A stretch of DNA of 64,000 nt, from NCBI RefSeq assembly GCF_048594845.1, contig NZ_JBMDXE010000317.1, positions 2,726-66,725 of the forward strand, read 5' to 3'. Made by a program: the position numbers and the translations under genes. Position 1 is the stretch's first letter, and every line of letters begins with the position of its first letter. Positions 18,401-41,212 of this stretch are shown here, in pieces. The stretch is from Rhodopseudomonas sp. (GTDB taxonomy: Bacteria; Pseudomonadota; Alphaproteobacteria; Rhizobiales; Xanthobacteraceae). The notes beneath the pieces were generated by a model. The model worked only from the letters and a program-made list of their open reading frames with translations, was not told where the DNA came from and did not search any database.

Positions 18401-18686
18401 GGACGTCTCCTGGCTGGATTCAGGGTCGAAGGGAGAGCTGTTTGCTACTCATCTGATATGCGGATCACGCGGTCGTCAACGCGGCCGGTAAATATGGAAC
18501 AATCGCCTCCGTAGATCCGTGTTCCGGAACGACCATTCTCCTGAAAACTTCCGATTTGGACGGAAATCCCGTAGCGGAATGGCTGCCAATTCGTCCCGCG
18601 CCCTTCACAACGGCGTCACGCTGGCTGTAGTATCCCTTGTGCATGCTGCTTCGCAGCGTCGATCGGACGGGAGTCAGGAGCGTTTC

Positions 18687-19244
18687 TTGAACGCGCATGT
18701 CTCGCAAGGCGGTTGGCCGGTGCTGGTGTTGAACGCGGACTTCCGGCCGCTCAGCTACTATCCGCTATCGCTTTGGTCGTGGCAGGACGCGATCAAGGCG
18801 GTGTTTCTCGATCGCGTCAACATCGTCGAGCACTACGACCGCGCGGTTCACAGCCCCAATCTCGACATCCGACTGCCCAGCGTCGTCTCGCTGAAATCCT
18901 TCGTGAAGCCGTCGACCCATCCGGCCTTCACGCGGTTCAACGTGTTCCTGCGCGACAAGTTCTCCTGTCAGTATTGCGGCGCACCGGACGATCTGACCTT
19001 CGACCACATCATCCCGCGCTCCAAGGGCGGCCAGACCACCTGGGAGAACGTCGTGGCGGCGTGCTCGCCGTGCAATCTGCGCAAGGGCAATCTGACGCCG
19101 GCCCAGGCCAAGATGTTTCCCCGCCAGACCGCCTTCGCCCCCACGGTCCACCAGCTCCACCGCAACGGCCGGCTGTTCCCGCCGAACTATCTGCACGAGA
19201 GCTGGCTCGACTACTTGTACTGGGACACCGAGCTCGATCCGTAG
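18687..19244 (+). CDS. HNH endonuclease (McrA-like conserved family)
   Basis: LVLNADFRPLS, FTRFNVFLRD...CQYCG, LTFDHIIPRSKGGQTTWENVVAACSPCN. TTG start at 18687 after an AGGAG RBS. Confidence 0.88.
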   Translation: MNAHVSQGGWPVLVLNADFRPLSYYPLSLWSWQDAIKAVFLDRVNIVEHYDRAVHSPNLDIRLPSVVSLKSFVKPSTHPAFTRFNVFLRDKFSCQYCGAPDDLTFDHIIPRSKGGQTTWENVVAACSPCNLRKGNLTPAQAKMFPRQTAFAPTVHQLHRNGRLFPPNYLHESWLDYLYWDTELDP

Positions 19245-19299: not shown

Positions 19300-20208
19300 T
19301 CACTTCAGATAGCTGGCCAGATTGAGGTTCAGGATCTTGCCGATCGCCGAATAGGATGCGGTGAGCTGCGACTGATAGGTCGAAAGCTGTGCCGTGACCG
19401 CGGCAACATCGACCGAGGTCAGGTCGCTCGCCAGCGTCTCGGTAAAGCTCTTGTAGTCGCTCTGGCGAGTGCTGGCGTCCTGGATCGCCGAAGCATTGTT
19501 GGACAGCTTCTCCTGTACGGCGGCGATCGAATCGAGCGCCGTTCCGGCGAGATCGAGCGCGCTGGAGATGTCGCTTGCCGAGAGTGAACTGCTGTTCGCT
19601 ACGGAGCGCAGGGCCCGCATCGCCTGCTCGAACGCCGAATTGTCGGCGGTGACCCCGTACGACACCGAGCGATCGGTGCTGACGCGGACCGCGGCAGCCT
19701 GATCGTCGCCCTTGTAGTAACCGGTGTCCGCGACGGTGGTCGAGCCGGAGCCCGACACGTAGCTCGACAGATCGACCGGCGCGGTGTCGGTCTTGCCGCC
19801 TGCGAACAGGTACTGGCCGTCATATTGCGTGTTGAGCAGCGAGGCCATCGACTTCAGCATGTCCTGCGCCGAGCTGATCACGGAGGTGGTCTCGGTGGCG
19901 CTGCCGGTCGAGGCGGCGCTGAGCTGCGAACGCAGCTGCGTCATCACGTCGGTCATAGACCCCACGGCCGAGTACATCGCCTGGACTTTGCCGCTCGCGA
20001 GCGTCGCGGCGTCGATGTAAGACTGCGCGCGGGTGAGACCGACCTGGAGATTGACGACGTGCTGCGCGTCGGCGCCGTAGCCGGCCAGCGTCTCGGACTT
20101 CACGCCGGAGGATTCCTGCAGCTGAAGGTCGGCGGTCTTGGCCTGAATTCGCAGTGCGTCCGAGATCATCTGGCCCGACAGCGCGAAGGTCGCGACCCGC
20201 ATGGTCAT
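19300..20208 (-). CDS. flgL: Flagellar hook-filament junction protein FlgL-like
   Basis: Flagellin-like N-terminus, LNTQYDGQYLFAGGKTDTAPVD, C-terminus LTASYSAIGKILNLNLASYLK; directly downstream of flgK. Confidence 0.85.
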   Translation of the reverse strand: MTMRVATFALSGQMISDALRIQAKTADLQLQESSGVKSETLAGYGADAQHVVNLQVGLTRAQSYIDAATLASGKVQAMYSAVGSMTDVMTQLRSQLSAASTGSATETTSVISSAQDMLKSMASLLNTQYDGQYLFAGGKTDTAPVDLSSYVSGSGSTTVADTGYYKGDDQAAAVRVSTDRSVSYGVTADNSAFEQAMRALRSVANSSSLSASDISSALDLAGTALDSIAAVQEKLSNNASAIQDASTRQSDYKSFTETLASDLTSVDVAAVTAQLSTYQSQLTASYSAIGKILNLNLASYLK

Positions 20209-20221
20209 GGCGCCGCTCCGC

Positions 20222-21988
20222 TCAGCCTGCCGACTGAACGGCGGTGAGCAGCGCCGAGAACATCGTGTTGATGATCTGGATCAGCTCCGAGGCCGCGGAG
20301 TACTTGTTCTGCAGCTCGCTCATGTTCGCCGTCTCTTCGTCGAGATTGACGCCGGATTGCGACGACAGCGAGCTGGCATAGGTCGACTGCGCCGCCTCCT
20401 TGGCGGTGTAGGTGCTGGACGCCTGCGAGGCCCGGCTGGCGACGTTCGATACGATCGCGGCGGCGTAATCGGCGAACGAACCCGTCGTGGCGGACAGGCC
20501 GCCGACCGCCGCAAAGCTCGTGGCGCCGGTCAGCTTCTGATACAGCGTATCGACCACGCTGGCGGCGTTGGACGTCACCACGACGGAGCCGGTCGTGAGC
20601 GTCGCTGACGAATCGAGCGTCGCCAGCGGCAGCGAAGTCGCCCCCGACAGAAGATCGCTGCGCACCGCGAAATCCGAGGCGCCGGTCGCGGTGACCAGAT
20701 CGTTGAGGCCGAAATAGCTGGAGAACCCTGCGCCGCTGCTGCCGGCCGCGCTGGTCATCTGGTTGATGGCGACGCCGTTGCCGCTGCCGGTCGCCTTGAT
20801 CACCAGATGGCCGTCGGCATTGATCGAGGCCGACAATCCGGAGATGCCGTTGACGGCGCTGACGAGGTCGCCGACCGTCGCGTAAGACGACAGGTCGAGA
20901 TCGGCCGACGACACCAGCTTGCCGCTGGAATCGGTGACCGCGAGCCGTACCGTGCCGGTCGCCGACAGCGCATCGCTGCTCGACACCGAGGCCGAGCCGG
21001 TGAGGCTGGCTGGCGGGGGAAGAGACGTCTGCGCGTTCGAGACGGCGTTGAGGGTGGTGGCGAGCTGTGTGGCCAGCGTATCGAGCTGCGACTGGACCGC
21101 CGGTAGCGTGCTGTCACGCAGCGTCACCAGCGCACTGACCTTGCCTGAGCTGATCTGCGACGTGATGTCGACGCCGTTGACCATGATGCCGCTGAAGCCG
21201 CCGCTGCCGTAGGAGGTCGAGGCGCTGACGCTCGACGCCGGCGTGTAGCTCAGCGTGTGTGCCGAACTGTCGACCAGCGCCTGGCCGGAGGTGGTGGAGA
21301 TCTGCAGGTCGCCGTTCGCCGCCGTGTAGTAGGAGATGTTCATCTGCGAGGAGACGTCCTGCAGCGCGGTGTTGCGCTCGTCCTCCAGATCGGCGGTGGA
21401 CTGACCGGCCGCCGCGGCCTGCCGGATCGCGGTGTTGAGATCCGCGATGCGCGACAGATCGTCGTTGATGCCGCTGACCGCGGAGGCGATGTCCTGGTCG
21501 GCGTTGCCGCGCAGCTTCTGGATGCCGCTCGACGTCTCGCGCAGCTGCGACGCCACCGCTTCCAGTGCGCTCACCGCGTTCGACTGCAGCGAACTGCTCG
21601 ACGGCGTCGCCGCCAGCGACGACAACGCCGACTCCAGCGAGGCGAGCGTATTGGCCAGCGAAGTGCCGGTCGACGTGCTGCCGGAGCTGCTGGTCGAGCC
21701 GTAGAGCTGCTGCAGCGAGCCGAGATAGCTGTTGAGCGTATCGGCCGATCCGAGGTCAGAGTTTGAGGCGATCAGCGACTTCAGCAGCAGGCGGTCGACC
21801 GTGCTGGTGATGCCGGTGACGGTGACGCCGGTGCCGACCCCGGCGGTGACGCTGCTGGCCTGGTTGGCGGTCTTCTTGGTGTAGCCGGTGGTGTCGGCAT
21901 TGGCGATGTTCGCCGATGCCACCGAGATCTGCACCTGCGTCGCCGACAAGCCGCTGAAGGCGATGCTTCGGGCGATGTTGAGCGACAT
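20222..21988 (-). CDS. flgK: Flagellar hook-associated protein FlgK
   Basis: SGLSATQVQISVASANIANADTTGYTKK, DLEDERNTAL, SGVNLDEETANMSELQNKYSAASELI. Start ATG 21988 (GGAGGAGG RBS). Confidence 0.9.
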   Translation of the reverse strand: MSLNIARSIAFSGLSATQVQISVASANIANADTTGYTKKTANQASSVTAGVGTGVTVTGITSTVDRLLLKSLIASNSDLGSADTLNSYLGSLQQLYGSTSSSGSTSTGTSLANTLASLESALSSLAATPSSSSLQSNAVSALEAVASQLRETSSGIQKLRGNADQDIASAVSGINDDLSRIADLNTAIRQAAAAGQSTADLEDERNTALQDVSSQMNISYYTAANGDLQISTTSGQALVDSSAHTLSYTPASSVSASTSYGSGGFSGIMVNGVDITSQISSGKVSALVTLRDSTLPAVQSQLDTLATQLATTLNAVSNAQTSLPPPASLTGSASVSSSDALSATGTVRLAVTDSSGKLVSSADLDLSSYATVGDLVSAVNGISGLSASINADGHLVIKATGSGNGVAINQMTSAAGSSGAGFSSYFGLNDLVTATGASDFAVRSDLLSGATSLPLATLDSSATLTTGSVVVTSNAASVVDTLYQKLTGATSFAAVGGLSATTGSFADYAAAIVSNVASRASQASSTYTAKEAAQSTYASSLSSQSGVNLDEETANMSELQNKYSAASELIQIINTMFSALLTAVQSAG

Positions 21989-22010
21989 GGCGGCCTCCTC
22001 CGCTGCGACG

Positions 22011-22490
22011 TCAGGCGCGAATGCTGGTCCCGACCGACGTGGCACGCACCGCGCGCGCGCCGCCGGCGCCGTAGGGCGAGGCGCTGGCGAGCTGTTCGCG
22101 GATCGCCTGCATCACCGCGTCGATGCGGCGGTGGCTCGCTTCCATCGCGGCGCGCAGCCGCACCAGGTTTTCGTCCATCGCGCCGCGCAGTTGCAGAACG
22201 CGATCGACCAGCCGGTCTCGGAGCTGCGGGTTCTGGACGTGGATGACGTTCGATCCGCCTGTGCAGTCCGCGACCCAGCGTTCGAACAGCTCGGCCAGCC
22301 GTGCCTTCTCGTCGACCTGCTTGAGCCGCGAGGCGGGCAGCCCTTTAGCGAGTTCGGTGTTCTCGTCGTCGATCACCAGAATCAGCTCGTCGATCAGTTG
22401 GATCATCGCCAGCGCGCGCTCGTCGCTGATGCCCGTCCGGGCGGGATTGCCATGGCCTGCCTGTTTCATCGTCGCCGTTCCCGTCTTCAT
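22011..22490 (-). CDS. Putative FlgN-like flagellar export chaperone
   Basis: Helical protein of about 150 aa (LILVIDDENTEL...ENLVRLRAAMEASHRRIDAVM...SPYGAGG) immediately upstream of flgK/flgL. Confidence 0.55.
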   Translation of the reverse strand: MKTGTATMKQAGHGNPARTGISDERALAMIQLIDELILVIDDENTELAKGLPASRLKQVDEKARLAELFERWVADCTGGSNVIHVQNPQLRDRLVDRVLQLRGAMDENLVRLRAAMEASHRRIDAVMQAIREQLASASPYGAGGARAVRATSVGTSIRA

Positions 22491-22496
22491 CAGAGT

Positions 22497-22760
22497 TCAG
22501 TGCCGGCCGGATCGCCCGGCCGCGTTGGCTCCACGCGCATAGGCGGTAATCGCTGTCGTCCGCTCGGTCGCCCGCGCCAGTTCGGCGGCGACGCGTTCGC
22601 GGCCGCGCGCCAGCTCGCGGCGGATCCGCTCGATCGCGTCGATCAAGGCGACGAGATCGGCCTCGGCGCCGCCGCCGGCCCGCGCGGCGCGCAACTTCAG
22701 CCGCGCGAGGCTGGGCAGCAGCGTATCGAGGTGCTCGTCGTGGTCCGGGCGGCGCGTCAT
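22497..22760 (-). CDS. Small helical protein, possibly a FliT-like chaperone
   Basis: 87 aa, coiled-coil-like, ends ...AITAYAR...; start overlaps the flgE stop. Confidence 0.45.
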   Translation of the reverse strand: MTRRPDHDEHLDTLLPSLARLKLRAARAGGGAEADLVALIDAIERIRRELARGRERVAAELARATERTTAITAYARGANAAGRSGRH

Positions 22761-24022
22761 CGCATCGCCGAGATCAAGGTATCGAACATCTTGTTCACCG
22801 TGGTGATCACCTGCGAGGCCGCCGAATAGGCCTGCTGCGCCGAGATCATGCTGCTGAACTGGCTCGACGTGTCGGTCGTGCTGGATTCCAGTTCGGAGCC
22901 GTAGATGGTGCCGGCGCCGTTCGCACCCGAGGTCTGCACCGACGCGCTGCCGGAGTCCGCCGTCGCCGAGTACATGCCGTAGCTGTTGCCGGAGAGGCCG
23001 CTCGGATCCTTGAAGGTCGCGACCGCGATCTTGTAGATCGCGATGGTCTGGCCGTTCGAGTAGGTGGCGTTGACGACGCCGTTGCTGCCGACCTTGATGC
23101 TGGAGAGCTTGCCGTAGGCGAGGCCGTCCGACGAAATGCTGGTGACGTTGATGGCCGGCGTCGTCAGGCCGGAGGCGTATTGGGTCAGCCCGTTGGTGCT
23201 GCCGACGGTGCCGAGGTCGAGCGAGACGGTCGAGTCCGACGCACCGTCGGTCCAGCCGCTTACCGCAATCGTCGCCGGGCTCGGGCTGGTCGAAGCGAGC
23301 GAGCCGTCGCTGTTGAAGGTGATCGCCACCGAGCCGGAGGTTGTGCCCGTGGTCTTGCTGGTGTCTGACGACAGCGTCGGGTTGCCGAAGCTCGCTGTCC
23401 AGGCGTTGGCGGCGGTCTTGGTCCAGGTCACCGCGACCGAATTCGCGGTGCCGAGTGAATCGTACACCGTCATCGAACTCGAATAGGTGGCGCCCGTTTC
23501 GGCGTCGGCCGGCAGATTCGCCGCGAACGTCGTCTTGGTGGTAGCGCTGCCGCTGGTCGAGGCGACCTGGGTGTTGATCGGGGTGAGGCTCGACGAGGAC
23601 GCATCGCCGACCACGTTGCCGTCGGCGTCGGTGCGCCAGCCTTCGAGATAGTAGCCGTTGTTGACCAGGTAGCCGGAATTGTCGATCGAGAACGCGCCGT
23701 TGCGCGTGTAGTAGGTGGTGCCGCCGGAGGCCGCATCCGAGGTGACGAAGAACCCGCTGCCCTGGATGGCGACGTCGGTGGCGTTGCTGGTCGCGGCCAG
23801 CAGGCCCTGCTGGCTGATATTGGCGCGGCCCGAGACGGTGACGCCGCCCGACGCGTAGGACGACGAACTACTCGACGCCGTCACCAGATTCTCGAACATC
23901 GCCGAGGTGGTCTTGTAGCCGGTGGTATCCGAATTGGCGATGTTGTCGGAGATCATCGACAAGGACTGGCTCTGCGCGTTGAGCGCCGAGATCGCCGAAG
24001 AGAGTGCGCCGCTGAGACTCAT
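22757..24022 (-). CDS. flgE: Flagellar hook protein FlgE
   Basis: ISDNIANSDTTGYK, TDVAIQGSGFFV, YTRNGAF, YDSLGT, C-terminus LESS..D...FSSMISAQQAYSAASQVITT. Confidence 0.93.
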   Translation of the reverse strand: MSLSGALSSAISALNAQSQSLSMISDNIANSDTTGYKTTSAMFENLVTASSSSSSYASGGVTVSGRANISQQGLLAATSNATDVAIQGSGFFVTSDAASGGTTYYTRNGAFSIDNSGYLVNNGYYLEGWRTDADGNVVGDASSSSLTPINTQVASTSGSATTKTTFAANLPADAETGATYSSSMTVYDSLGTANSVAVTWTKTAANAWTASFGNPTLSSDTSKTTGTTSGSVAITFNSDGSLASTSPSPATIAVSGWTDGASDSTVSLDLGTVGSTNGLTQYASGLTTPAINVTSISSDGLAYGKLSSIKVGSNGVVNATYSNGQTIAIYKIAVATFKDPSGLSGNSYGMYSATADSGSASVQTSGANGAGTIYGSELESSTTDTSSQFSSMISAQQAYSAASQVITTVNKMFDTLISAMR

Positions 24023-24041
24023 GACACTGCTCCGGCTGCGA

Positions 24042-24710
24042 TCACGACGTGACGCCGATGACGTTGCTGGCGCTGACCGCCACGCCGTTGACCAGCAGCG
24101 ACGGCGTGCTGGTCGAGGTGTCGATGCCGGTGACGGTGCCGCTGACGGTCGAGTACTGGTAGACGGAGTTTCCGGCGGCGTCGGTCGCTGTCACCGAGAT
24201 GCTGTACTGCCCGCCGTCGGAGAGTTGCGTGCCGCTTGAATTCTTGCCGTCCCAGGTGAAGCTGTTGGAGCCGGCGGTGCCGCTCCCGGTGCCGCTCCAC
24301 ACCGTGTTGCCGGACGAATCCTTGATGCTGATCGCCACGTCCGACGCGGCCGACGACAGGGTGTAGCCGAATGTCGCCGAACCGCCGGACAACGTGGCTG
24401 TGTCGGTCTTGGCTTCGACGGTGTGGCCGATGTAGTTGACCGAATTCAGCGTCACCAGGCTCGAGAACGAGCTCGCCAGCGAGCTCATGCTGGCATTGGT
24501 GTTCTGCTGTTCGGTGAAATTGGCGTAGGACGTCAGTTGATTGATGAAATCGGTTGTGCTGGTGGCGTTCAGCGGATCCTGATTCTGCAGTTCGCTGACC
24601 AGAAGGCTGAGAAAGTCGCTGGAGCTGAGAGAGGTGGAAGACGACGACGAACTCGTCGTGCTCGTCGAGGTGGTGGCGGCCGACGCGGTGGTCGCGGCAA
24701 CGCTGGTCAT
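24042..24710 (-). CDS. flgD: Flagellar hook capping protein FlgD
   Basis: DFLSLLVSELQNQDPLNATSTTDFINQLTSY, FTWDGKNSSG, GQYSISVTA. Start ATG 24710 (GGAGG RBS). Confidence 0.92.
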   Translation of the reverse strand: MTSVAATTASAATTSTSTTSSSSSSTSLSSSDFLSLLVSELQNQDPLNATSTTDFINQLTSYANFTEQQNTNASMSSLASSFSSLVTLNSVNYIGHTVEAKTDTATLSGGSATFGYTLSSAASDVAISIKDSSGNTVWSGTGSGTAGSNSFTWDGKNSSGTQLSDGGQYSISVTATDAAGNSVYQYSTVSGTVTGIDTSTSTPSLLVNGVAVSASNVIGVTS

Positions 24711-24802
24711 GTCGCAAGCCTCCAGGCTTCGCCGCACGGTGCGCAGCGAGGGCGTGGTGAAAACGGATGGTCTTGGGCGGAGTCCGTGGGGCCGCCTGCT
24801 GA

Positions 24803-24834
24803 TCAAACGGGGCGGCGGCCGAATCCAGGCGCGG
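24803..24834 (-). promoter_or_regulatory. Putative ECF promoter of the flgDE-KL operon
   Basis: Minus strand reads CCGCGCCTG-N15-CCGTTTGA; the motif is shared with four other cassette promoters. Confidence 0.7.
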
Positions 24835-24862
24835 ATTCTGAGGAGCTAATGAATTGATTAGT

Positions 24863-24876
24863 CGGCAGAATTTGCC
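24863..24876 (-). promoter_or_regulatory. ftr-like (FlbD-type) palindrome upstream of the flgD promoter
   Basis: GGCAAATTCTGCCG, 28 bp upstream of the putative -35. Confidence 0.45.
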
Positions 24877-24900
24877 TAGCGCGGGACGTGGTCGTGGCGC

Positions 24901-25410
24901 TTAGTTCAGCCGTGTGCGCTGGACATCCGACAGCGTCGTGTCGCAGGCGAGCGCGTGCGACATCCGCCAGAACATGTGGGCGAGGCGTGTGAAAGCGATC
25001 CGCTCGCGGGCCGAATCCTCGACGCTCGGCGGCAACGTGAACGTCTCGATACCGATGATGTTGTCGCAGGTGGGATGCTGGCCGATCGCCTGCGCGATCA
25101 CCGATACGCAGGGGGCGTCATCGGCTGCTTCGGCGTCGGTTTGAGGCGGCAGGCCAGGGTGCTGCAACGGCGCCGCATAGAACTGGTAGGCGCCGTGGCC
25201 GAGTTGCTTCACGACATCATCGGCGAGCGGCGGCGTGTCGCCGAAGCAGACCAGCCGCGAATCCTTCAGCACCTCCGGCTCGAGCAGATCGAGATCGGAA
25301 GGCGACACGTCGGTCCAGATCGACAGGCCCGGATTGTGCTCGCGGAGCAGCAGCGTCAGCGCGTGCTGATAGTCGGGGCGGCCGGCAAACAGGATGATGG
25401 TCTTGAGCAT
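24901..25410 (-). CDS. Formyltransferase-like protein with degenerate active site
   Basis: TIIL...HNPGL, LGHGAYQFY (NFHP expected), LAHMFWRMSHALA resemble rhizobial formyltransferase-family proteins. Confidence 0.55.
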   Translation of the reverse strand: MLKTIILFAGRPDYQHALTLLLREHNPGLSIWTDVSPSDLDLLEPEVLKDSRLVCFGDTPPLADDVVKQLGHGAYQFYAAPLQHPGLPPQTDAEAADDAPCVSVIAQAIGQHPTCDNIIGIETFTLPPSVEDSARERIAFTRLAHMFWRMSHALACDTTLSDVQRTRLN

Positions 25411-25422
25411 CGGGCGTATCCT

Positions 25423-26754
25423 TCAGATGCGCGGCACCGGGACGACGGCGCTGCCGCGTCCGCTCGCGAGCGAGGCAAAGAGATCGGGCGGGATCGGCTG
25501 GCCGGGCAGGATTTCGAGCACGCTGGCGCGGCCCGAGCGCGCTGCCCGTCGCGCGGCATCGACCTCGTCGCGCCAGGCACACAGCGTCAGTTCGAGCCGG
25601 CCGAAGCCGCCGCATTCGGCGGCGAATGCGCTGGTCGCGGCATCGATGGTGGCGGCGACAGCGCGGGCGTCCGCCGTGCCGACATCGTGCAGAATCACCG
25701 CAACGCTGTCGGTCGAAGGCGAGGGGGACTGCATCACCACGAGGGCGTCGCGAGGTCCGGTCCGGCCGGCCCGTCGCGGCGCGCGGGCGATTGCCGCGAA
25801 GCTCGGGTCGGGTCCGAGATCGGCCGTGGTGCTGCGCAGATCGTGGACGATCGTTGCCTTGCTCTCCGACAGATCCCCGACCAGCGCGTGGTATGAGCGT
25901 GGCAGCCAGACCGTGTCGAGCGACCGCTGCGAGGTCGCCAGGCACCAGGCCTGATCGAGCAGCGCGCCTTCCCACACAGTCGGGCACAGCTCGGCGAGCT
26001 GCTGCCAGACGGCGAGGAAGGCTTCGGCAGCGGCGGTCCGGCCGAGGTAGATCGTTCGGGCCGACATCTCCCAGCGATTCCATTTATGGACCGCGAGATC
26101 GCAGGCCAGCCGTGTCGGTATCAGCGGCGCCTCGTGCAGATCGGCCCCCGCCTCGACGAACAGCAGCGGTTCGGCGAAGCGGTCCCACATTCGCGCGATG
26201 AAGTCGGCCTTCTCGGCGCACTGCAGGCGATCGTCGAATGCGCTGTCGATCGGTTCGATATGCGCGGCGAGCTGGTGGCGCTCGACGGCTTGCCGCAGCC
26301 GGATCGCACCCTGATCGTCGCCCCGGCGCGGATAACAGCTCACCACCCGTAGCCGCTCGGCCGTCGCGGCGCGCGGCACGAGCGTCTCGATCGGGCCGAT
26401 GCCACCCCACCACAGCTCGTGCGGGCCGTCGGCGCCGTGCGTGCCCACCGTGCCGTATTCGGTCAGCTTCGATTTCAGAAAATCGAACACCGGATTCTCG
26501 CCGAACGGCACGACGACGACGCAACCGGGCCGCAGGCTGCGATAGAACAGCTCGGCGCCGGCACTGTTGAGAGGATCGGTGACGATGATCAGCCCATCCT
26601 CGGGCCGAAGCTTGTCGCCTCGCCGATATAGCCTGGCTGCGCCGAACTGCATGACCAGCCAGCCGAGCCGGCGGCGCTGCGCGGCGTTGAGCCGAAGCTC
26701 GGCGGAGCGCAGCAGGGAGGCGAGGTCTGCGGGGACATGATCGGAAGCGTGCAA
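25423..26754 (-). CDS. Hypothetical protein with a GT-A/nucleotide-diphospho-sugar transferase-like central domain
   Basis: VVSCY...A.RL...L..HIE...C..KADFI..M...LLFVEAG (DxD position degenerate)...CDLAVH...TIYL..T..A..FL..W. Start uncertain; TTG 26754 chosen, ORF is open to 26928. Confidence 0.45.
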   Translation of the reverse strand: MHASDHVPADLASLLRSAELRLNAAQRRRLGWLVMQFGAARLYRRGDKLRPEDGLIIVTDPLNSAGAELFYRSLRPGCVVVVPFGENPVFDFLKSKLTEYGTVGTHGADGPHELWWGGIGPIETLVPRAATAERLRVVSCYPRRGDDQGAIRLRQAVERHQLAAHIEPIDSAFDDRLQCAEKADFIARMWDRFAEPLLFVEAGADLHEAPLIPTRLACDLAVHKWNRWEMSARTIYLGRTAAAEAFLAVWQQLAELCPTVWEGALLDQAWCLATSQRSLDTVWLPRSYHALVGDLSESKATIVHDLRSTTADLGPDPSFAAIARAPRRAGRTGPRDALVVMQSPSPSTDSVAVILHDVGTADARAVAATIDAATSAFAAECGGFGRLELTLCAWRDEVDAARRAARSGRASVLEILPGQPIPPDLFASLASGRGSAVVPVPRI

Positions 26755-26807
26755 GATGGTGGACCGCAAAAGGGAAAGCTGCCCCTTGAACGGCCGAGCG
26801 CGCGGGA

Positions 26808-29255
26808 TCAGGCGCGCGCGTTTTCGTCGGCGCTGGCGGCGAGCGGCCGGCCTGCGCCGAGCGGCGTCACCGCCAGCGTGTAGATCGCGACCGGTGATGG
26901 CAGTGGGCCGAGTTGGACCAGCAGGCACGCCTCGTCCTGATCAGCCAGATAATGACGGCCGCTGCGGCGCAGTCCGGCATCGATCAGTTGCGCGGCCGGA
27001 ACGCTCACGACCTCCTGCCCATGCGCAGCCTCGGTGATTGTCTTGCCCTGCTGCAGCACGACGCCGTCGAGTAGCCCTTCGCGCGCGAGCTTGCCGAGCG
27101 GCAGCGCGATCATCGCGAGGCCCATTTGCTGCGAGACCGGGACGCGGAGGCGCAGATCGCCGAGGCCGGTGAGAAATACCGTGACGGTCTGCAGCGTGGC
27201 GCTGCCGTCGGCTCCGAACAGACCAACCTGCAGCGTGCCGCAAGGCGCCTCGCCGACTACATCGGACGACAGTCGATTGGCGCCGAACAGCGCATAGGAA
27301 TAGGCCAGCGACGGTGATAGCGCCGCGAAGCTGCCGGCGATCCACATCGGCGGCGGGGCGGTGGTGCAGGCGGCGGAGAGGCCGCGCGCCACGATCTGCT
27401 TACGGATGAAATCGCCGTCGATCATCGGCGCCAGCGTCGCGGTGCCGAGATTGACGTCGTGCTGGAAGTCGCCGAACAGCGCGAGCTCCTCGTCGTCGGG
27501 CAGCAGCAACAATCGCCCGATCGTGGCGGCGCTCCAGGCCGCCGACCGCGCAAGGTCGTCGTCAGGCGACAGCCTATAATCCGTGGCGACGGCGCCGGCC
27601 GCTGCCGTGAAGGCGAGCGCGCCGGCCTGGATCTCGGCGCATCGCGCGATCTGCGCGGCCGGCCGCGGATTGGCTTCGCGCACCACGCGGCCGTGCTGAT
27701 AGTCGCGGACCGATCCCTCCGGTGCGCAGCAGATCTGCTCCAGAATCAGCGCATTGCGCACCAGCATGCGATTGACGTGCGGCGTTACGGTGCGATCGCA
27801 GATGAAGCCCTCGGCGCTGTCGCCTTCCGGAATATCCTCGAGCGCGTCGTCGAGGGCGAACAGATACAGCCCGTGCAGGCGGACGGATCTGCCGTCCAGG
27901 CGTAGCGCGCGGTTCAGCGCTTTCTGCACATTGCCCGAATAGCCGACATCGACCAGCACGACGTCGGTCAGCGCGTCGAAATCAGCTATCGTCCGTTGCA
28001 GATAGCCGATCAGCCGGGCCCGGAGCCCGGCCGCGAGGTCGGCGACATCGCGCGGGCGCAGCAGGGTCGGCAGCGCGTCGGCGAGATCGGCGCCAGTGGC
28101 GATGCCGCCGGGATGGTCGGCGAAGAAGCGTGTGACTGCCGGCGGCAGCAGCTTCATCATGTCGCGGAACGTCGCGGCGTCGATCTTCGGAATCTTGCGA
28201 AACAATTCGCACAGCGGCTCGAGCGTATCGGCCGAGGCGATCAGGCTGACGCGGCGATTGACTTCGAGATAGCAGGCGGGTGTCGCACGCGTCTGTTGCC
28301 AGACCCGGTACGACAGGAAGCCGTCGCGGCCGAGGAAGGCGAGGCCGACGCGGCGGCCCTGCTGCTCGAGCTTTGCCAGACGATCCGCCACGAAAGCATC
28401 GAACGCGCGCATCACCGGTCCGACCACGGTGACGCCGAGATGATGCGCCGGCGATTTCTCCGCGCTGCGCGCCGCCACCATCCGCCGCAGCGTGCGTGCG
28501 CCATGATCGAGCTGCCGCGGGTGATCGTCGCACAGCAGTTCGAACAGCGAGGCCTCGCGCTGCAGCCGCGACGTCAGCCTCGCGCCGGCCTGCGGATAGT
28601 GCCGCGCCCGGATGCCGAAGCGCCGCGCGCCCTCGATGTCGGCCTGCGGATTGTCGCCGACATGCAAGGCCAAGGCGGTATCGATCCCTTGCTCCGCCAC
28701 ATAGGCGGCGAACAGCGACTCGCTCTTGCTGCTGCGGTGGTCGCAGGAGGCGTAGAGGAAATCCCAGGCGAGCTCGGGGCAGCACGCCCGCAACAGTTGC
28801 CCGAGCCGCGCCGAATCCCAATACGTATCAGAGATGAATCCGACGCGGTGGCCGGCGCGCTTGTTGTCGAGATATTGCGCGAGTATTTCCGGATTTGTCC
28901 GGCACAGGTCGAGCTCGGCGCTGAATTCCGCTTCCACCAGTCGATCAATCGCGCCCGCATCGAGCCCGAACAGTTTGAACGGGAAGCAGGAATAGATCTC
29001 GGCGATATGCACCTCGGCCGAGCCGCGTGTCTGCTTTGCTTTCGCGCGCGCGCGGGATTCAGCAAGGATGCGATGCTGACAGAAACCATCAGACATATTC
29101 CGATCATCATCGGAAATGCCCGAAAGCTGATAAGCCCTTTCAAATACGCCGGTTGGCGTCGTGCAGGCACGTACCAGAAATGTATCGAAAACATCGAACG
29201 AGCACGCGCGCTGCGTCTGCGTTCGACGTAGGCCGCCGATCGATAGCGCCGTCAT
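26808..29255 (-). CDS. HAD phosphatase + glycan phosphoribosyltransferase-like protein (probable PRPP-dependent ribofuranosyltransferase)
   Basis: HAD motifs SFDVFDTFLVR, ISDTY, SSKS..LF, HVGDN..AD; second domain G...VGP..., FLGRDG, LVDVGYSGNVQ, GLYL, LEQ....EGS...Y. Start placed at ATG 29255. Confidence 0.7.
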   Translation of the reverse strand: MTALSIGGLRRTQTQRACSFDVFDTFLVRACTTPTGVFERAYQLSGISDDDRNMSDGFCQHRILAESRARAKAKQTRGSAEVHIAEIYSCFPFKLFGLDAGAIDRLVEAEFSAELDLCRTNPEILAQYLDNKRAGHRVGFISDTYWDSARLGQLLRACCPELAWDFLYASCDHRSSKSESLFAAYVAEQGIDTALALHVGDNPQADIEGARRFGIRARHYPQAGARLTSRLQREASLFELLCDDHPRQLDHGARTLRRMVAARSAEKSPAHHLGVTVVGPVMRAFDAFVADRLAKLEQQGRRVGLAFLGRDGFLSYRVWQQTRATPACYLEVNRRVSLIASADTLEPLCELFRKIPKIDAATFRDMMKLLPPAVTRFFADHPGGIATGADLADALPTLLRPRDVADLAAGLRARLIGYLQRTIADFDALTDVVLVDVGYSGNVQKALNRALRLDGRSVRLHGLYLFALDDALEDIPEGDSAEGFICDRTVTPHVNRMLVRNALILEQICCAPEGSVRDYQHGRVVREANPRPAAQIARCAEIQAGALAFTAAAGAVATDYRLSPDDDLARSAAWSAATIGRLLLLPDDEELALFGDFQHDVNLGTATLAPMIDGDFIRKQIVARGLSAACTTAPPPMWIAGSFAALSPSLAYSYALFGANRLSSDVVGEAPCGTLQVGLFGADGSATLQTVTVFLTGLGDLRLRVPVSQQMGLAMIALPLGKLAREGLLDGVVLQQGKTITEAAHGQEVVSVPAAQLIDAGLRRSGRHYLADQDEACLLVQLGPLPSPVAIYTLAVTPLGAGRPLAASADENARA

Positions 29256-29283
29256 GCGTCGTAATCCGCTTATTTGTCGTCGG

Positions 29284-29314
29284 TTCAACGCGTGGTAATC
29301 GATAAGCAGGCGGC
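29284..29314 (-). promoter_or_regulatory. Putative ECF promoter of the HAD/gPRT operon
   Basis: Minus strand reads GCCGCCTG-N15-GCGTTGAA, about 30 bp upstream of ATG 29255. Confidence 0.65.
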
Positions 29315-29617
29315 GGGCGACGCTAAAAGTTAGTTCGTGATCGAAATGCTGCTGATCATCGACTGACACCGCGACAAATTGCGTTAGTGTCGAGTGCATG
29401 ATTCGGAACTCACCACTCGTCGCTAATTCGCGAGAACGGCTACGTCGCCAACGCGATGGTGATCGTTCGTCGCGTCTGTGCCGATGGTGTCAGCCGGCTC
29501 GCGCGCCGATCGCGCTGCGCGTCGCGAGGGGAGAGCCGCTCGGTCGGCCGGCGGGCCCCCTTGGTGTGTCGATGTGGTCTGCGCTGTGCATCGGAGCGCC
29601 GATCAGCCGGACAAGGA

Positions 29618-29652
29618 GGCAAATATTGCCGTCCGGTCGGCAAAACATTCCT
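29618..29652 (+). promoter_or_regulatory. Two ftr-like sites upstream of the sigma promoter
   Basis: GGCAAATATTGCCG (29618-29631) and GGCAAAACATTCCT (29639-29652); the second lies 28 bp before the putative -35. Confidence 0.45.
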
Positions 29653-29680
29653 ACTAACTATTTGAAAAATAATCAAAATA

Positions 29681-29712
29681 CCGCGCCTGCTTGGGGCGGG
29701 ACGGCCGTTCAA
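29681..29712 (+). promoter_or_regulatory. Putative autoregulatory ECF promoter of the sigma gene
   Basis: CCGCGCCTG-N15-CCGTTCAA. Confidence 0.7.
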
Positions 29713-29768
29713 CACGACGAGGCCAGACTGGTTTGGCGCCAGCGGCGTTGCGGGTTGGAGGATGTGGG

Positions 29769-30464
29769 ATGACTTACGCGGTCGAAATCTCGGCGCCTGC
29801 TGAGGCCAGCGTCGCGGCGCTCGCGCCTGATCACGACACCTCGCCCGAGATGGCGCCGACTCTCGTCCCCGACGTGCCGCCGGCGAGCTCCGAGTTCGTA
29901 TTCGACGAAGACGCGCCGCTGCTCGACCGGCTCGCGACCGGAGACGAAGCCGCTTTCCGCGCGCTGGTGGAGCGGCACATCGATCGGGGCTATGCGATCG
30001 CGCTGCGCATTCTCGGCAACGCGGCCGATGCCGAGGATGTGGTGCAGGACACCATGCTGAAGGTCTGGACGCATCGCGGCCGGTGGCAGCACGGCCGCGC
30101 CAAATTCTCGACCTGGCTGTACCGCGTCATCAGCAATCGCTGCATCGATCTGCGCCGCAAGCCGCGCACCGAGAATGTCGATGCCGTCCCCGAGGTCGCC
30201 GACGCCCAGCTCGATGCGAGCCGCGTGATCGAGCGCAACGAACTCAGCGGGATGCTGGAAACCGCGATGCAGCGGCTGCCGGAGCAGCAGCGCCTCGCAT
30301 TGATCCTGTCGTATCACGAGAACATGAGTAACGGCGAAATCGCCGAAGTCATGGAAAGCACCGTCTATGCGGTCGAATCGCTGTTGAAGCGCGGCCGCCA
30401 ACAGCTTCGCGCGCTGCTGCGCGGACACGAGCGCGACCTGCGCGGCGCATTTACCGACTGTTGA
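29769..30464 (+). CDS. ECF RNA polymerase sigma factor
   Basis: Region 2 (GDEAAFRALVERH...DAEDVVQDTMLKVW...KFSTWLYRVISNRCID) and region 4 (RLPEQQRLALILSYHENMSNGEIAEVMESTVYAVESLLKRGR); no region 3; about 40 aa Pro/Ala-rich N-terminal extension. Confidence 0.93.
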   Translation: MTYAVEISAPAEASVAALAPDHDTSPEMAPTLVPDVPPASSEFVFDEDAPLLDRLATGDEAAFRALVERHIDRGYAIALRILGNAADAEDVVQDTMLKVWTHRGRWQHGRAKFSTWLYRVISNRCIDLRRKPRTENVDAVPEVADAQLDASRVIERNELSGMLETAMQRLPEQQRLALILSYHENMSNGEIAEVMESTVYAVESLLKRGRQQLRALLRGHERDLRGAFTDC

Positions 30465-30490: not shown

Positions 30491-30522
30491 GCCGCCTGAT
30501 CGAGGCGGCTCCTTCCGTTCGA
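30491..30522 (+). promoter_or_regulatory. Putative ECF promoter of fliC-fliD-fliS
   Basis: GCCGCCTG-N16-CCGTTCGA. Confidence 0.7.
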
Positions 30523-30601
30523 ACATCAGACGGGGACGATCCGCGTCCGGTGTCATCGCCGCGACGCGGCTGGTCACGCCGATCAGCACAGGAGCCTTGC
30601 T

Positions 30602-31426
30602 ATGCCCGCGATTTCGACCAACACGGCGGCCAATTCGGCGGTCCGCTATCTCAACATCAACTCCGCGCAGGAGACCAGCTCGCTGTCGAAACTGGCGAGC
30701 GGCTCGCGCATCACCTCGGCGTCCGACGACGCGGCCGGTCTTGCGATCTCCACCCGGATCTCCTCCGACGTCACGACGCTGCAGCAGGCCGCCACCAATG
30801 CGTCGCAGGCGGTCGCCATCCTGCAGACCGCCGACGGCGGCGCGTCCAATATCAGCGACATCCTGGCCCGCATGAAATCGCTGGCGTCCGAATCCGCCTC
30901 GGGCACCACCACGGATTCGAGCCGCGCCTACATCAACTCTGAATTCTCACAGCTCTCCAGCCAGATCGACTCGATCGCCAGCGGCACGCGTTACTCGAGC
31001 CAGAGCCTGCTCGACGGCACCAGCGTGTTTGCTTCGGGTGTCTCGGTGCTGGTCGGCACGCAGGGCAGCGACACCATCACGATCACGCTGTCCGACCTGA
31101 AGTCGGCGACGCTCGGCGTCTCCAGCCTCGACGTCAGCACGCAGTCCGGTGCCACCACGGCGCTGAGCTCGCTCGACACCGCGATCAACACGGTCTCGGC
31201 GGCGCGTGCCAGCATCGGCGCGCAGGAGTCGCGGTTCAACTTCAGCGCCGACTCGATCTCGACCCAGACCCAGAATCTGCAGTCGGCGAACTCGGCCATC
31301 AAGGATGTCGATATCGCCTCCGAGCAGGCCAAACTGTCCTCCGCGGAGGTCAAGACCCAGGCAGCCGTCTCGGCCGAAGCCGCGGCGAACCAGATGCCGC
31401 AATATCTGCTGAAGCTGCTCGGCTGA
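30602..31426 (+). CDS. fliC: Flagellin, minimal (274 aa, D0/D1 only)
   Basis: SKLASGSRITSASDDAAGLAIS, LQTADGG, RMKSLA, C-terminus IKDVDIASE...QAA...AANQMPQYLLKLLG; AGGAG RBS. Confidence 0.93.
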   Translation: MPAISTNTAANSAVRYLNINSAQETSSLSKLASGSRITSASDDAAGLAISTRISSDVTTLQQAATNASQAVAILQTADGGASNISDILARMKSLASESASGTTTDSSRAYINSEFSQLSSQIDSIASGTRYSSQSLLDGTSVFASGVSVLVGTQGSDTITITLSDLKSATLGVSSLDVSTQSGATTALSSLDTAINTVSAARASIGAQESRFNFSADSISTQTQNLQSANSAIKDVDIASEQAKLSSAEVKTQAAVSAEAAANQMPQYLLKLLG

Positions 31427-33799: not shown

Positions 33800-34093
33800 A
33801 TGGATATTGCGGAGTTCGAGGACCTGATCGACCGGCTGGGGGATGATCCATCCCGTTGGCCGGATGATCAGCGCCGCGCGGCCGAGCATCTGCTCGCCGC
33901 CTCCGTGGCGGCGCAGAGCCTGCTGGATAGCGCCAGGGCGGTGCGCGAAGCGCTGGCGGGGCCGCCGGTGCGGGCTCCCGCCGGCTTGGCCGACCGCATC
34001 GTCGCGGCCGCGAAACAGACTCCCGCCGATCCGGTGGATTCGACGGGGCGTCCGCTAGATCCGTCTCCTGGCGCAAAGGTTTTTGCGCGCTGA
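33800..34093 (+). CDS. Putative soluble anti-sigma-like protein
   Basis: MDIAEFEDLIDRLGDDPSRWP...A..LL..S..A..LL..AR...L...PAGLADRIVAAA resembles the N-terminal domain of small proteins typically encoded beside such ECF sigmas; no transmembrane helix. Confidence 0.55.
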   Translation: MDIAEFEDLIDRLGDDPSRWPDDQRRAAEHLLAASVAAQSLLDSARAVREALAGPPVRAPAGLADRIVAAAKQTPADPVDSTGRPLDPSPGAKVFAR

Positions 34094-39520: not shown

Positions 39521-41212
39521 ATGCTGGCAAAATTTTCAATTCGCGCGAAGATCACGACGCTCGTGGCTGCGCTCCTCATCGCCATGTCGGGACTGGGCGC
39601 CCTCGGGATATTCAAACTTCAATCGATGAATACTGCGACGATCGACATCGCCAAGAACTGGCTGCCGAGCGTCCGTATCCTCGGCGAGCTACGCTACAAT
39701 GTCTTGAACTATCGGACGGCGCTCCGGAACCACATGCTCGACATGACCGCCGAAGGGAAGGCGGGCGTCGAGAAGCGCATCCTCGAGCTCGACGATCGGA
39801 TCCAGAAGACGCAGCAAACCTACGAGGCGCTGATCTCTTCCCCCGAGGAGCGACAGATCTACGAGAGCTGGAAGGCTCAATGGATCGAATACAAGGCGGT
39901 GGGGGCGAAGATCATCGAAGCGTCCCGCAAGACCCTGGGGCAGGTCTCGATGGAAGGGACCGATATCCTGTTCAAGCAGGCCAATCCGCTCGGTCTGAAG
40001 ATGGACGAGCTGCTGCAGAAGGATGTGGCGCTGAACGACAAGGGTGCGGACGACTCCACGGTGGTGGCGGACGCGACCTACTCGTCCGCCTTCTACATCA
40101 TTCTCGCCATCCTGGCCGCCAGCATTCTGTTCGGCGTCGTCGCCAGCTTCCTGGTGATCCGCGACGTGATCGCCGGCATCGACGGCATCATCAAGCCGAT
40201 GCAGTCGCTCGGACAGGGTGATTTGACCGCGGAGGTGCCGTATCGCGGCATCACCACCGAGATCGGCTCGATGGCGGATGCGCTGCAGATCTTCAAGGAA
40301 GCGCTGATCGCCAAGAAGGCCGCCGATGAAGCGGCGGCCCGCGAAGCCGAAGCGAAGATCGCGCGCGGCCAACGGGTGGATACGGCGACCCGGCAGTTCG
40401 AAAGCGCGATCAGCGAGATCGTCGCGACCGTCACCTCCGCTTCCACCGAGCTGGAAGCCTCGGCCGGCACCCTCACCGCCACGGCCGGACATGCCCAGGA
40501 ATTGACCACCGCAGTTGCCGCGGCTTCGGAGGAAGCCTCCACAAACGTGCAGTCGGTGGCGTCGGCGACCGAGGAAATGTCGTCGTCGATCACCGAGATC
40601 AGCCGGCAGGTGCAGGAATCCGCCCGGATCGCCGGCGAAGCCGTCGAGCAGGCGCGGGCCACCAATGCCAGCGTCGGCGAGCTGTCGACGGCGGCAGCGC
40701 GGATCGGCGATGTGGTCGAGCTGATCAACACCATCGCGGGGCAGACCAACCTGCTGGCGCTCAACGCCACGATCGAGGCGGCGAGGGCCGGCGAGGCGGG
40801 TCGCGGCTTCGCCGTGGTGGCGTCGGAGGTGAAGGCGCTGGCCGAACAGACCGCGAAGGCCACCGGCGAGATCAGCGCGCAGATCGGCGGAATCCAGAAT
40901 GCGACCGGCTCGTCCGTCAAGGCGATCCGCGAGATCGGCGAGACCATCGCCAAGATGTCCGAAATCGCCTCCACCATCGCGTCGGCGGTGGAGGAACAAG
41001 GCGCCGCCACTCAGGAGATCTCGCGCAACGTTCAGCAGGCGGCCGAAGGCACCCAGCAAGTGTCGGCCAATATCGCCGACGTACAGCGCGGCGCCACCGA
41101 GACCGGTTCGGCCTCCAATCAGGTTCTGTCCGCTGCACGGTCGCTGTCGCAGGACAGCGACAAGCTGAAGAATGAAGTCGCGAAATTCCTTGAGACCGTG
41201 CGGGCCGCCTGA
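39521..41212 (+). CDS. Methyl-accepting chemotaxis protein (4-helix-bundle sensor, HAMP)
   Basis: TM1, NWLPSVR.LG periplasmic domain, TM2, HAMP (EIGSMADAL), [34 protein letters not shown]. Confidence 0.95.

Follow-up and report, generated by a model that had tools for sequence, protein, structure and literature searches.

For a long time the Alphaproteobacteria were thought to have no sigma factor dedicated to the flagellum. A report of December 2025 then described the first, RpoE6 of Azospirillum, and left open which signal activates it (PMC12826043). The same work described the gene cluster of A. brasilense to which RpoE6 belongs together with Asf6, its anti-sigma factor, and stated the synteny of this cluster with Bradyrhizobium and R. 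palustris; according to it, neither the sigma factor nor the flagellin had been studied in those bacteria. It identified no upstream input to RpoE6 and did not mention FlbD. A second well-described system is that of Caulobacter, where class III/IV flagellar genes are activated by FlbD through a layout consisting of ftr sites, an integration host factor (IHF) site and a sigma-54 promoter (review PMC3930126). Here, we analyse a stretch of 64,000 nucleotides from Rhodopseudomonas sp. (contig NZ_JBMDXE010000317.1, positions 2,726 to 66,725; 65.7% G+C), hereafter the window, in which features of both systems are found together. A compact flagellar cluster spans 19.3-34.1 kb of the window and encodes an orthologue of RpoE6, a sigma factor of the extracytoplasmic function (ECF) type. 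Upstream of the ECF-type promoters of this sigma gene and of the hook-cap gene flgD stand ftr-like palindromes, which we call boxes. Sites of the ftr type and promoters of the RpoE6 type are each known and their combination is new; neither ftr-like sites at ECF promoters nor an upstream input to an RpoE6-type sigma factor was found described in the papers searched.

The palindromic element has the form GGCA-N5-TGCC, or CGGCA-N5-TGCCG when its 15 bp are counted. An earlier note, made from the DNA letters of this locus, had quoted the strings involved, and all of them are present at the flgD and sigma promoters, including a second sigma element at 29618. The palindrome that it saw is also real and takes the form given here; for the ftr sites of Caulobacter the note had cited CGGCAA-N4-GCCG. 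On the minus strand, the flgD box GGCAAATTCTGCC (24876..24864) is followed by G plus 28 nt (ACTAATCAATTCATTAGCTCCTCAGAAT) and by CCGCGCCTG (24834..24826). The same arrangement is found on the plus strand before the sigma gene, where GGCAAAACATTCC (29639-29651) is followed by T plus 28 nt and by CCGCGCCTG (29681-29689). In the ftr frame the boxes of the window read aGGCAAATTCTGCCG, aGGCAAATATTGCCG and cGGCAAAACATTCCt. When box distance is measured from the first G of the element to the C of CGCCTG, the palindromes lie 45 nt upstream of CGCCTG at both promoters, and the second sigma palindrome lies 21 nt further up.

The conservation of this arrangement, a check that the earlier note had named beforehand, was followed in 80 orthologous Bradyrhizobium and Rhodopseudomonas loci whose upstream regions were aligned (81 sequences). 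The boxes turned out to be restricted to the sigma and flgD promoters in about 80 species. At the sigma promoter, a perfect GGCA-N5-TGCC stands at 66-67 nt as the distal box in 79/79 loci, and the degenerate proximal box stands at 45 nt in 77/79, with the pattern cGGCAAAAnnnnCC conserved. The flgD box is present in 77 of 78 loci, at 46 nt in 63 of them and at 45 nt in 14. The identical spacing of 28 bp that had been proposed for the two promoters thus holds within the window and is lost in most relatives at flgD; what it leads to is the -35 element of an ECF promoter. None of the 81 fliC promoters carries a box, which agrees with what had been noted for fliC in the window, and the promoters of the genes for proteins of 863 and 501 amino acids (u863 and u501) have none either. 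The 13 columns of the flgD box hold 1.80 bits each, compared with 0.29 bits over the 40 columns upstream, and the sigma boxes hold 1.5-1.6 bits per column; taking all boxes, the 40 columns upstream of each reach 0.3-1.0 bits. In other words, sequence and distance of the boxes are maintained across loci in intergenic DNA that otherwise drifts. By its number of occurrences in the window, the palindrome does not stand out (21 matches at no more than one mismatch, 19 expected), so that its position and its conservation have to carry the argument. Placing the start of the -35 element at position -35 puts the box centres at about -74 and -95, that is, 21 bp apart and approximately four and six helical turns from the -35 element.

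Boxes arranged in this compact way seem to be characteristic of the Bradyrhizobium-Rhodopseudomonas group, where the sigma gene heads the cluster. In a distant Hyphomicrobiales relative, two perfect palindromes are found about 250 bp upstream of the sigma promoter, with degenerate copies nearer to it. A separate observation concerns photosynthetic Bradyrhizobium (loci L029, L033, L046, L048, L060, L062-L064 and L079), which have a second flgD palindrome of the GGCGAATTTTGCC type 33-34 bp upstream of the first.

The promoters that follow the boxes belong to a class with the form CGCCTG-N16/17-CGTT, which occurs five times in the cluster, before the sigma gene, fliC, flgD, u863 and u501. The window as a whole contains seven matches to the motif, where 1.1 are expected, and five of the seven precede cluster genes. 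At the sigma promoter, CGTT comes exactly 16 nt after CGCCTG in 79/81 sequences; the spacing is also 16 nt in all 78 loci holding flgD, and it is 17 nt at fliC in 81/81. The motif is kept before the 863-aa gene in 73 loci and before the 501-aa gene in 59. In A. brasilense, the fliC2 promoter is CGCCAG-N16-CGTGAG, depends on RpoE6 and was mapped by rapid amplification of 5′ cDNA ends (5′RACE) and deletion analysis (PMC12826043), and in the deposited sequence its -35 hexamer starts at -35 and its -10 element at -13. The two sets can be written together as CGCC(A/T)G-N16-CGT(G/T). Because CGTT stands at a fixed 16-17 nt in some 80 species and because of the mapped form of the RpoE6 promoter, we read CCGCGCCTG as containing the -35 element of the promoter class recognised by the ECF sigma factor of the cluster. 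The CGCCTG motif is not a generic core element, and a role of CCGCGCCTG as part of a sigma-54, sigma-28 or sigma-70 promoter was rejected because of the CGTT spacing and the RpoE6 form. Further CGCCTG-N15-17-CGTT matches in the loci are scattered within genes and look like chance occurrences.

The sigma factor itself consists of regions 2 and 4 only, scores 419 bits with NCBIfam NF009190, above its cut-off, and is 47.5% identical to A. brasilense RpoE6 by tblastn. A search returned 4065 homologues, with Bradyrhizobium and Rhodopseudomonas ranked on top. The identity is 93-94% with Rhodopseudomonas telluris and Rhodopseudomonas sp. AAP120 and 72-83% with about 75 Bradyrhizobium species. The anti-sigma factor expected of an RpoE6-type regulon is also encoded in the cluster, by an Asf6-like gene (Table 1). 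In RNA sequencing data from a locus like that of B. diazoefficiens, the predicted sigma start lies 2 nt from the beginning of one contig, the predicted fliC start 5 nt from that of another, and flgD is covered by read-through from upstream. The public runs are of low coverage and were available as contigs, which makes them weak support for start sites. These contig starts lend weak support to the predicted dependence of the cluster promoters on the ECF sigma factor, whose gene is probably autoregulated. Because they have conserved ECF-type promoters of their own, u863 and u501 are predicted to belong to the same regulon, and the unknown genes may modify flagellin.

Two observations concern the transcripts of these promoters. 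The mechanical start of the flgD open reading frame (ORF), at 24806, overlaps the -10 element; the true start is probably the ATG at 24710, which leaves a leader of about 86 nt. Strongly conserved blocks are also found in the 5′ leaders of the sigma gene (29710-29768 in the window; GGAAGCCGTgTGGCAT in Bradyrhizobium) and of fliC (30520-30600; CCGTTTGAgCGaaCGGACGGGGC), which suggests post-transcriptional control or an RNA structure.

Between box and -35 element lies an AT-rich spacer. The one at flgD contains AATCAATTCATTA, an exact match to the IHF core, WATCAANNNNTTR, and the one at the sigma gene matches this core on the bottom strand with one mismatch. Some Bradyrhizobium clades retain the IHF-like core of flgD, whereas the B. 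japonicum group does not. The pentamer ACTAA, which had been described as shared by the two promoters, forms with CCGCGCCTG a composite (ACTAA-N23-CCGCGCCTG) that occurs exactly twice in 64 kb, at the flgD and sigma promoters only. Across loci it is conserved only at the sigma promoter, within the block TAA-N4-TTGAAAAATAA, and it is absent at flgD in most Bradyrhizobium. The AT-rich spacers could act as an UP-like element or as an IHF site. A CtrA box (TTAA-N7-TTAA) was also sought in the spacer and gave no match.

The label "ftr-like", already given to the boxes in the earlier note, proved apt when metagenomes were scanned for CGGCA-N5-TGCCG followed, after 50-80 nt, by the sigma-54 promoter motif TGGCMC-N5-TTGC, a search that returned at least 80 loci. 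Downstream genes were identified from 104 ORFs at the 70 loci with a usable ORF. Among the matches listed, flagellar rod, hook, hook-associated protein (HAP) or flagellin genes lie downstream at about 32 of these 70 loci; the proteins recognised are FlgE/F/G rod or hook proteins (16), flagellins (6), FliK (4), FlgK (3), FlgI (1) and FlgD (1), at these flagellar matches most gaps fall at 72-75 nt, and A and T prevail in the centres of the boxes. CGGCAAATTCTGCCG, the very variant found at flgD in the window, recurs at sigma-54-linked matches, one of which (L133) has a flagellar ORF downstream. Another match precedes the flgE gene of a Bradyrhizobium main flagellum, whose product shares 85-90% identity with named proteins of that genus. 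Bradyrhizobium sp. STM 3557 carries the accessory cluster as well (L046), and upstream of its main flgE stand CGGCAAGAGTTGCCG, another copy that is half-degenerate, and TGGCACAACGATTGC. A further match precedes a flagellin about 85% identical to FljK/L/M/N of C. crescentus and shows two palindromes, an AT-rich stretch and TGGCCCGGCAATTGC. The reference form of ftr used here was derived from these sigma-54-linked flagellar promoters, including the Caulobacter-type flagellin gene. The window boxes correspond to it in being dyads of about 15-19 bp with CGGCA/TGCCG half-sites and in their location at genes of the hook and filament class, since one stands before the flgD-flgE-flgK-flgL operon and the others before the sigma gene, the first of sigma-fliC-fliD-fliS. 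Judged by sequence, the window boxes are equivalent to the enhancer found at hook and flagellin genes of the main flagellum within this bacterial family. The scan also revealed an invariant CGGCATCAATTGCCG located 54-57 nt upstream of sigma-54 promoters in at least eight metagenome loci (L098, L110, L124, L130, L140, L147, L151 and L152), which shares its half-sites with ftr and has another centre; Pfam recognised EF-hand proteins in 13 of the ORFs downstream of the listed matches, and a look-up of these proteins by exact sequence yielded no names.

The resemblance to the Caulobacter system extends to several levels: a CGGCA-N5-TGCCG site with an A/T-rich centre that is often paired, an AT-rich stretch before the promoter, hook and filament genes as targets and, for FlbD acting with FliX and IHF, a logic that couples expression to completion of the basal body. 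The differences are that the promoter here is ECF-type and not a -24/-12 sigma-54 promoter, that FlbD is a binder we infer, and that the cluster boxes are some 35 bp closer, with centres at about -74/-95 in comparison with about -109/-140 in the Caulobacter-type sigma-54 layout. The window contains no gene for a regulator or a basal-body component, and the cluster no basal-body, export or regulator gene; a factor binding to the boxes would therefore act in trans. As for the three unknown genes u863, u501 and u169, they encode no DNA-binding domain, and u863 has been lost from photosynthetic Bradyrhizobium that retain the boxes, so none of them was kept as a candidate regulator.

The reading that we propose, and to which we give an even chance, is that an FlbD-type protein at the boxes activates the ECF promoters of the sigma gene and of flgD. 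That FlbD is the protein that binds there is probable, and it would then make contact with the polymerase. According to this model, FliX would license FlbD when the basal body is complete, and a dimer of FlbD would then bind the palindromes. From approximately four helical turns upstream of the -35 element, and across the UP-like or IHF-like AT-rich spacer, it would help the polymerase with the ECF sigma factor to initiate. Firing of the self-amplifying sigma loop and of the hook genes would thus await an available basal body, while fliC and the other genes would follow sigma activity alone, restrained by the Asf6-like anti-sigma factor. The result would be an order of two steps, in which the sigma loop and the hook operon come first, once licensed by FlbD/FliX, and fliC and the unknown, possibly flagellin-modifying, genes come next. 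In its full extent, the proposal is that FlbD co-activates ECF promoters independently of sigma-54 and so wires the main checkpoint to a second, FliA-like sigma/anti-sigma module, with which an alternative hook and filament would be made for the same basal body; this we put forward tentatively, as possible but doubtful.

Several observations weigh against the proposal. No credible or conserved sigma-54 promoter was found in the vicinity of the boxes; within the cluster, the highest-scoring matches reach 8/11, lie inside genes and occur at background frequency, and in the conserved columns downstream of the boxes there is no GG-N10-GC kept across the family. Where an ftr site would have a sigma-54 promoter about 100 bp away, the nearest promoter here is ECF-type and begins 45 nt downstream of the box start. 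In the absence of a sigma-54 promoter, the classical FlbD/ftr enhancer mechanism cannot apply, and FlbD would have to act on the ECF promoter from about -74/-95. To our knowledge, sigma-54 provides the only mechanism by which FlbD activates, which is inapplicable here, and we know of no enhancer-binding protein that activates ECF promoters. The half-sites, moreover, are neither exclusive to flagellar genes nor provably those of one protein, since 13 of the metagenome matches listed, with the same half-sites and the centre TCAAT, precede EF-hand genes. The flagellar share of the scan has to be read as one obtained with no comparison palindrome and with sigma-54 promoters that are themselves enriched at flagellar genes. 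Finally, the flgD promoter of A. brasilense has the ECF motif without a palindrome, and at non-sigma-54 promoters Caulobacter FlbD is a repressor (review PMC3930126).

The best of the alternatives, which we nevertheless consider unlikely, assigns the boxes to a different dimeric helix-turn-helix regulator, either a dedicated one or one with FlbD-like specificity and no AAA+ domain, that works as a class I activator; the resemblance to ftr would then be coincidental or due to shared ancestry. The geometry is that of a classical upstream activator, with two centres 21 bp apart at about -74/-95 and a fixed distance to the -35 element, and both the missing sigma-54 promoter and the half-sites of the EF-hand group, which belong to another regulon, fit this explanation. 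However, neither the window nor any of the 80 loci has a regulator gene linked to the cluster, the likeness to main-flagellum enhancers includes the A/T-rich centre, the variant CGGCAAATTCTGCCG is shared with sigma-54-linked matches, and both kinds of site exist within one genome (STM 3557).

Less probable still is that FlbD binds the boxes and represses or dampens both promoters, as at the Caulobacter class II gene fliF, so that the accessory genes are turned off once the main flagellum proceeds. Repression is the sole documented action of FlbD at non-sigma-54 promoters (PMC3930126), and chromatin immunoprecipitation sequencing found FlbD at class II promoters (PMC4083442; the main text of that paper gives no motif). 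We favour activation over repression because the sites lie upstream of the -35 element and not over the promoter, because a strict helical register, for which repression from upstream has no need, is kept across about 80 species, and because the products of the genes controlled are late, secreted parts of no use before the basal body is finished, so that a shut-off at basal-body completion would make little sense.

A third explanation, very improbable, is that the boxes are true sigma-54 enhancers serving a promoter that was missed, such as TGGAAG-N5-TGGCA in the Bradyrhizobium sigma leader. In Bradyrhizobium this block begins 65 nt beyond the proximal box with GG-N10-GC retained, but no more than 8/12 positions agree with the consensus, both the window and its three Rhodopseudomonas relatives lack it, flgD shows no counterpart, and the RNA contig begins at the ECF start, upstream of the would-be sigma-54 start. 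The box itself was also considered as a sigma-54 promoter and rejected, GGCA-N5-TGCC being 2 bp short of GG-N10-GC and the proximal box having no GC. That the boxes are a chance resemblance or a functionless relic is scarcely credible: the short palindrome is no more frequent in the window than expected and ACTAA is not conserved at flgD, but retention of sequence and position in 77-79 loci amid diverged intergenic DNA already contradicts chance.

An activator of the NtrC family that works with a polymerase lacking sigma-54 is not without precedent, as E. coli TyrR and NtrC of Rhodobacter capsulatus activate such polymerases from upstream sites. Both the proteins and the sites differ from those considered here, and a similar ability of FlbD would be an analogy. 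The proposed order can also be compared with the four-tier polar hierarchies of Vibrio and Pseudomonas, in which expression of FliA, the flagellar sigma factor, depends on a sigma-54 activator, FlrA or FleQ. In both cases an enhancer-binding protein stands above an alternative sigma factor that drives flagellins, and an anti-sigma factor provides a second checkpoint. Unlike fliA, whose promoter is of the sigma-54 type and whose product is sigma-28, the sigma gene of the cluster encodes an ECF-type factor and has a presumably autoregulated ECF promoter. With respect to A. brasilense, the sigma and anti-sigma factors are orthologous and the promoters alike (CGCCAG-N16-CGTGAG, compared with CGCCTG-N16/17-CGTT), whereas the A. 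brasilense sigma gene is penultimate in its cluster and transcribed from the fliC2 promoter (PMC12826043); in the window it comes first and has its own promoter with two boxes.

Table 1. Features of the flagellar cluster and of its promoters (positions in the window; ~ marks approximate values)
Feature	Position	Strand	Remarks
flgL, flgK, two small ORFs, flgE, flgD		-	Operon order flgD-flgE-orf-orf-flgK-flgL
flgD (hook cap)	24042..24710	-	Pfam FlgD, FlgD_ig and tudor domains; first gene of operon
flgD promoter	24806..24831	-	-35 CGCCTG, 16-nt spacer, -10 CGTT; predicted start 24796
flgD spacer	24835..24862	-	28 nt, AT-rich; contains AATCAATTCATTA
flgD box GGCAAATTCTGCC	24864..24876	-	ftr-like palindrome; centre ~-74 from predicted start 24796
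u169, u501, u863 (169, 501 and 863 aa)	24901-29399	-	Three conserved genes; no Pfam family
u501 promoter	26789..26814	-	ECF-type; no box
u863 promoter	29287..29312	-	ECF-type; no box
Sigma distal box GGCAAATATTGCC	29618..29630	+	Perfect palindrome; centre ~-95
Sigma proximal box GGCAAAACATTCC	29639..29651	+	Half-degenerate; centre ~-74; 21 bp from distal box
Sigma spacer	29652..29683	+	AT-rich; conserved block TAA-N4-TTGAAAAATAA
Sigma promoter	29684..29709	+	CGCCTG-N16-CGTT; predicted start ~29719
ECF sigma factor gene	29769..30464	+	RpoE6 orthologue (A. brasilense); Pfam Sigma70_r2, r4_2
fliC promoter	30493..30519	+	CGCCTG-N17-CGTT; no box
ECF sigma, fliC (274 aa), fliD, fliS, 97-aa ORF		+	Gene order
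Asf6-like anti-sigma gene	33800..34093	+	97 aa, downstream of fliS; 48% identical to A. brasilense Asf6 over 66 aa (E 2e-14)

The cluster is arranged on both strands (Table 1), and its gene order varies among relatives. Relative to Bradyrhizobium (L004-L080), both the window and R. telluris have the flgD-flgL block (19300-24806) inverted and placed on the other side of the sigma gene, and a gene for an HNH endonuclease (18519-19244) lies at the outer edge of the inverted block. In Bradyrhizobium, an Asf6-like ORF is found directly upstream of flgD. For the flagellin (30602-31426, plus strand, 274 aa), identity over the 80 loci amounts to 82-99%, with most values in Bradyrhizobium at 85-92%, compared with 75-83% for the sigma factor and about 63% for FliS, an unusually strong constraint for a flagellin without D2/D3 domains. 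The 863-aa protein has a weak HAD-like N-terminus, and its gene is the one missing from photosynthetic Bradyrhizobium. The remainder of the window is occupied by metabolic genes, two GGDEF-EAL proteins and one chemoreceptor; these last three, two PAS/GGDEF/EAL proteins and a methyl-accepting chemotaxis protein, are encoded at 2108-4687, 39521-41212 and 60876-62663 and flank the cluster at a distance.

The palindromes provide a concrete and cheaply testable candidate for the input to an RpoE6-type sigma factor, namely the FlbD/FliX basal-body checkpoint, and they predict an order of expression within the cluster, with the sigma and hook genes first and the flagellin and modification genes next. 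If the proposal is true, FlbD acting on an ECF promoter would be an unusual case of an enhancer-binding protein that works without sigma-54. The interest of the finding is moderate and would become high only if sigma-54-independent activation by FlbD were demonstrated. The cluster belongs to major bacteria of soil and root nodules, whose competitiveness is affected by their motility.

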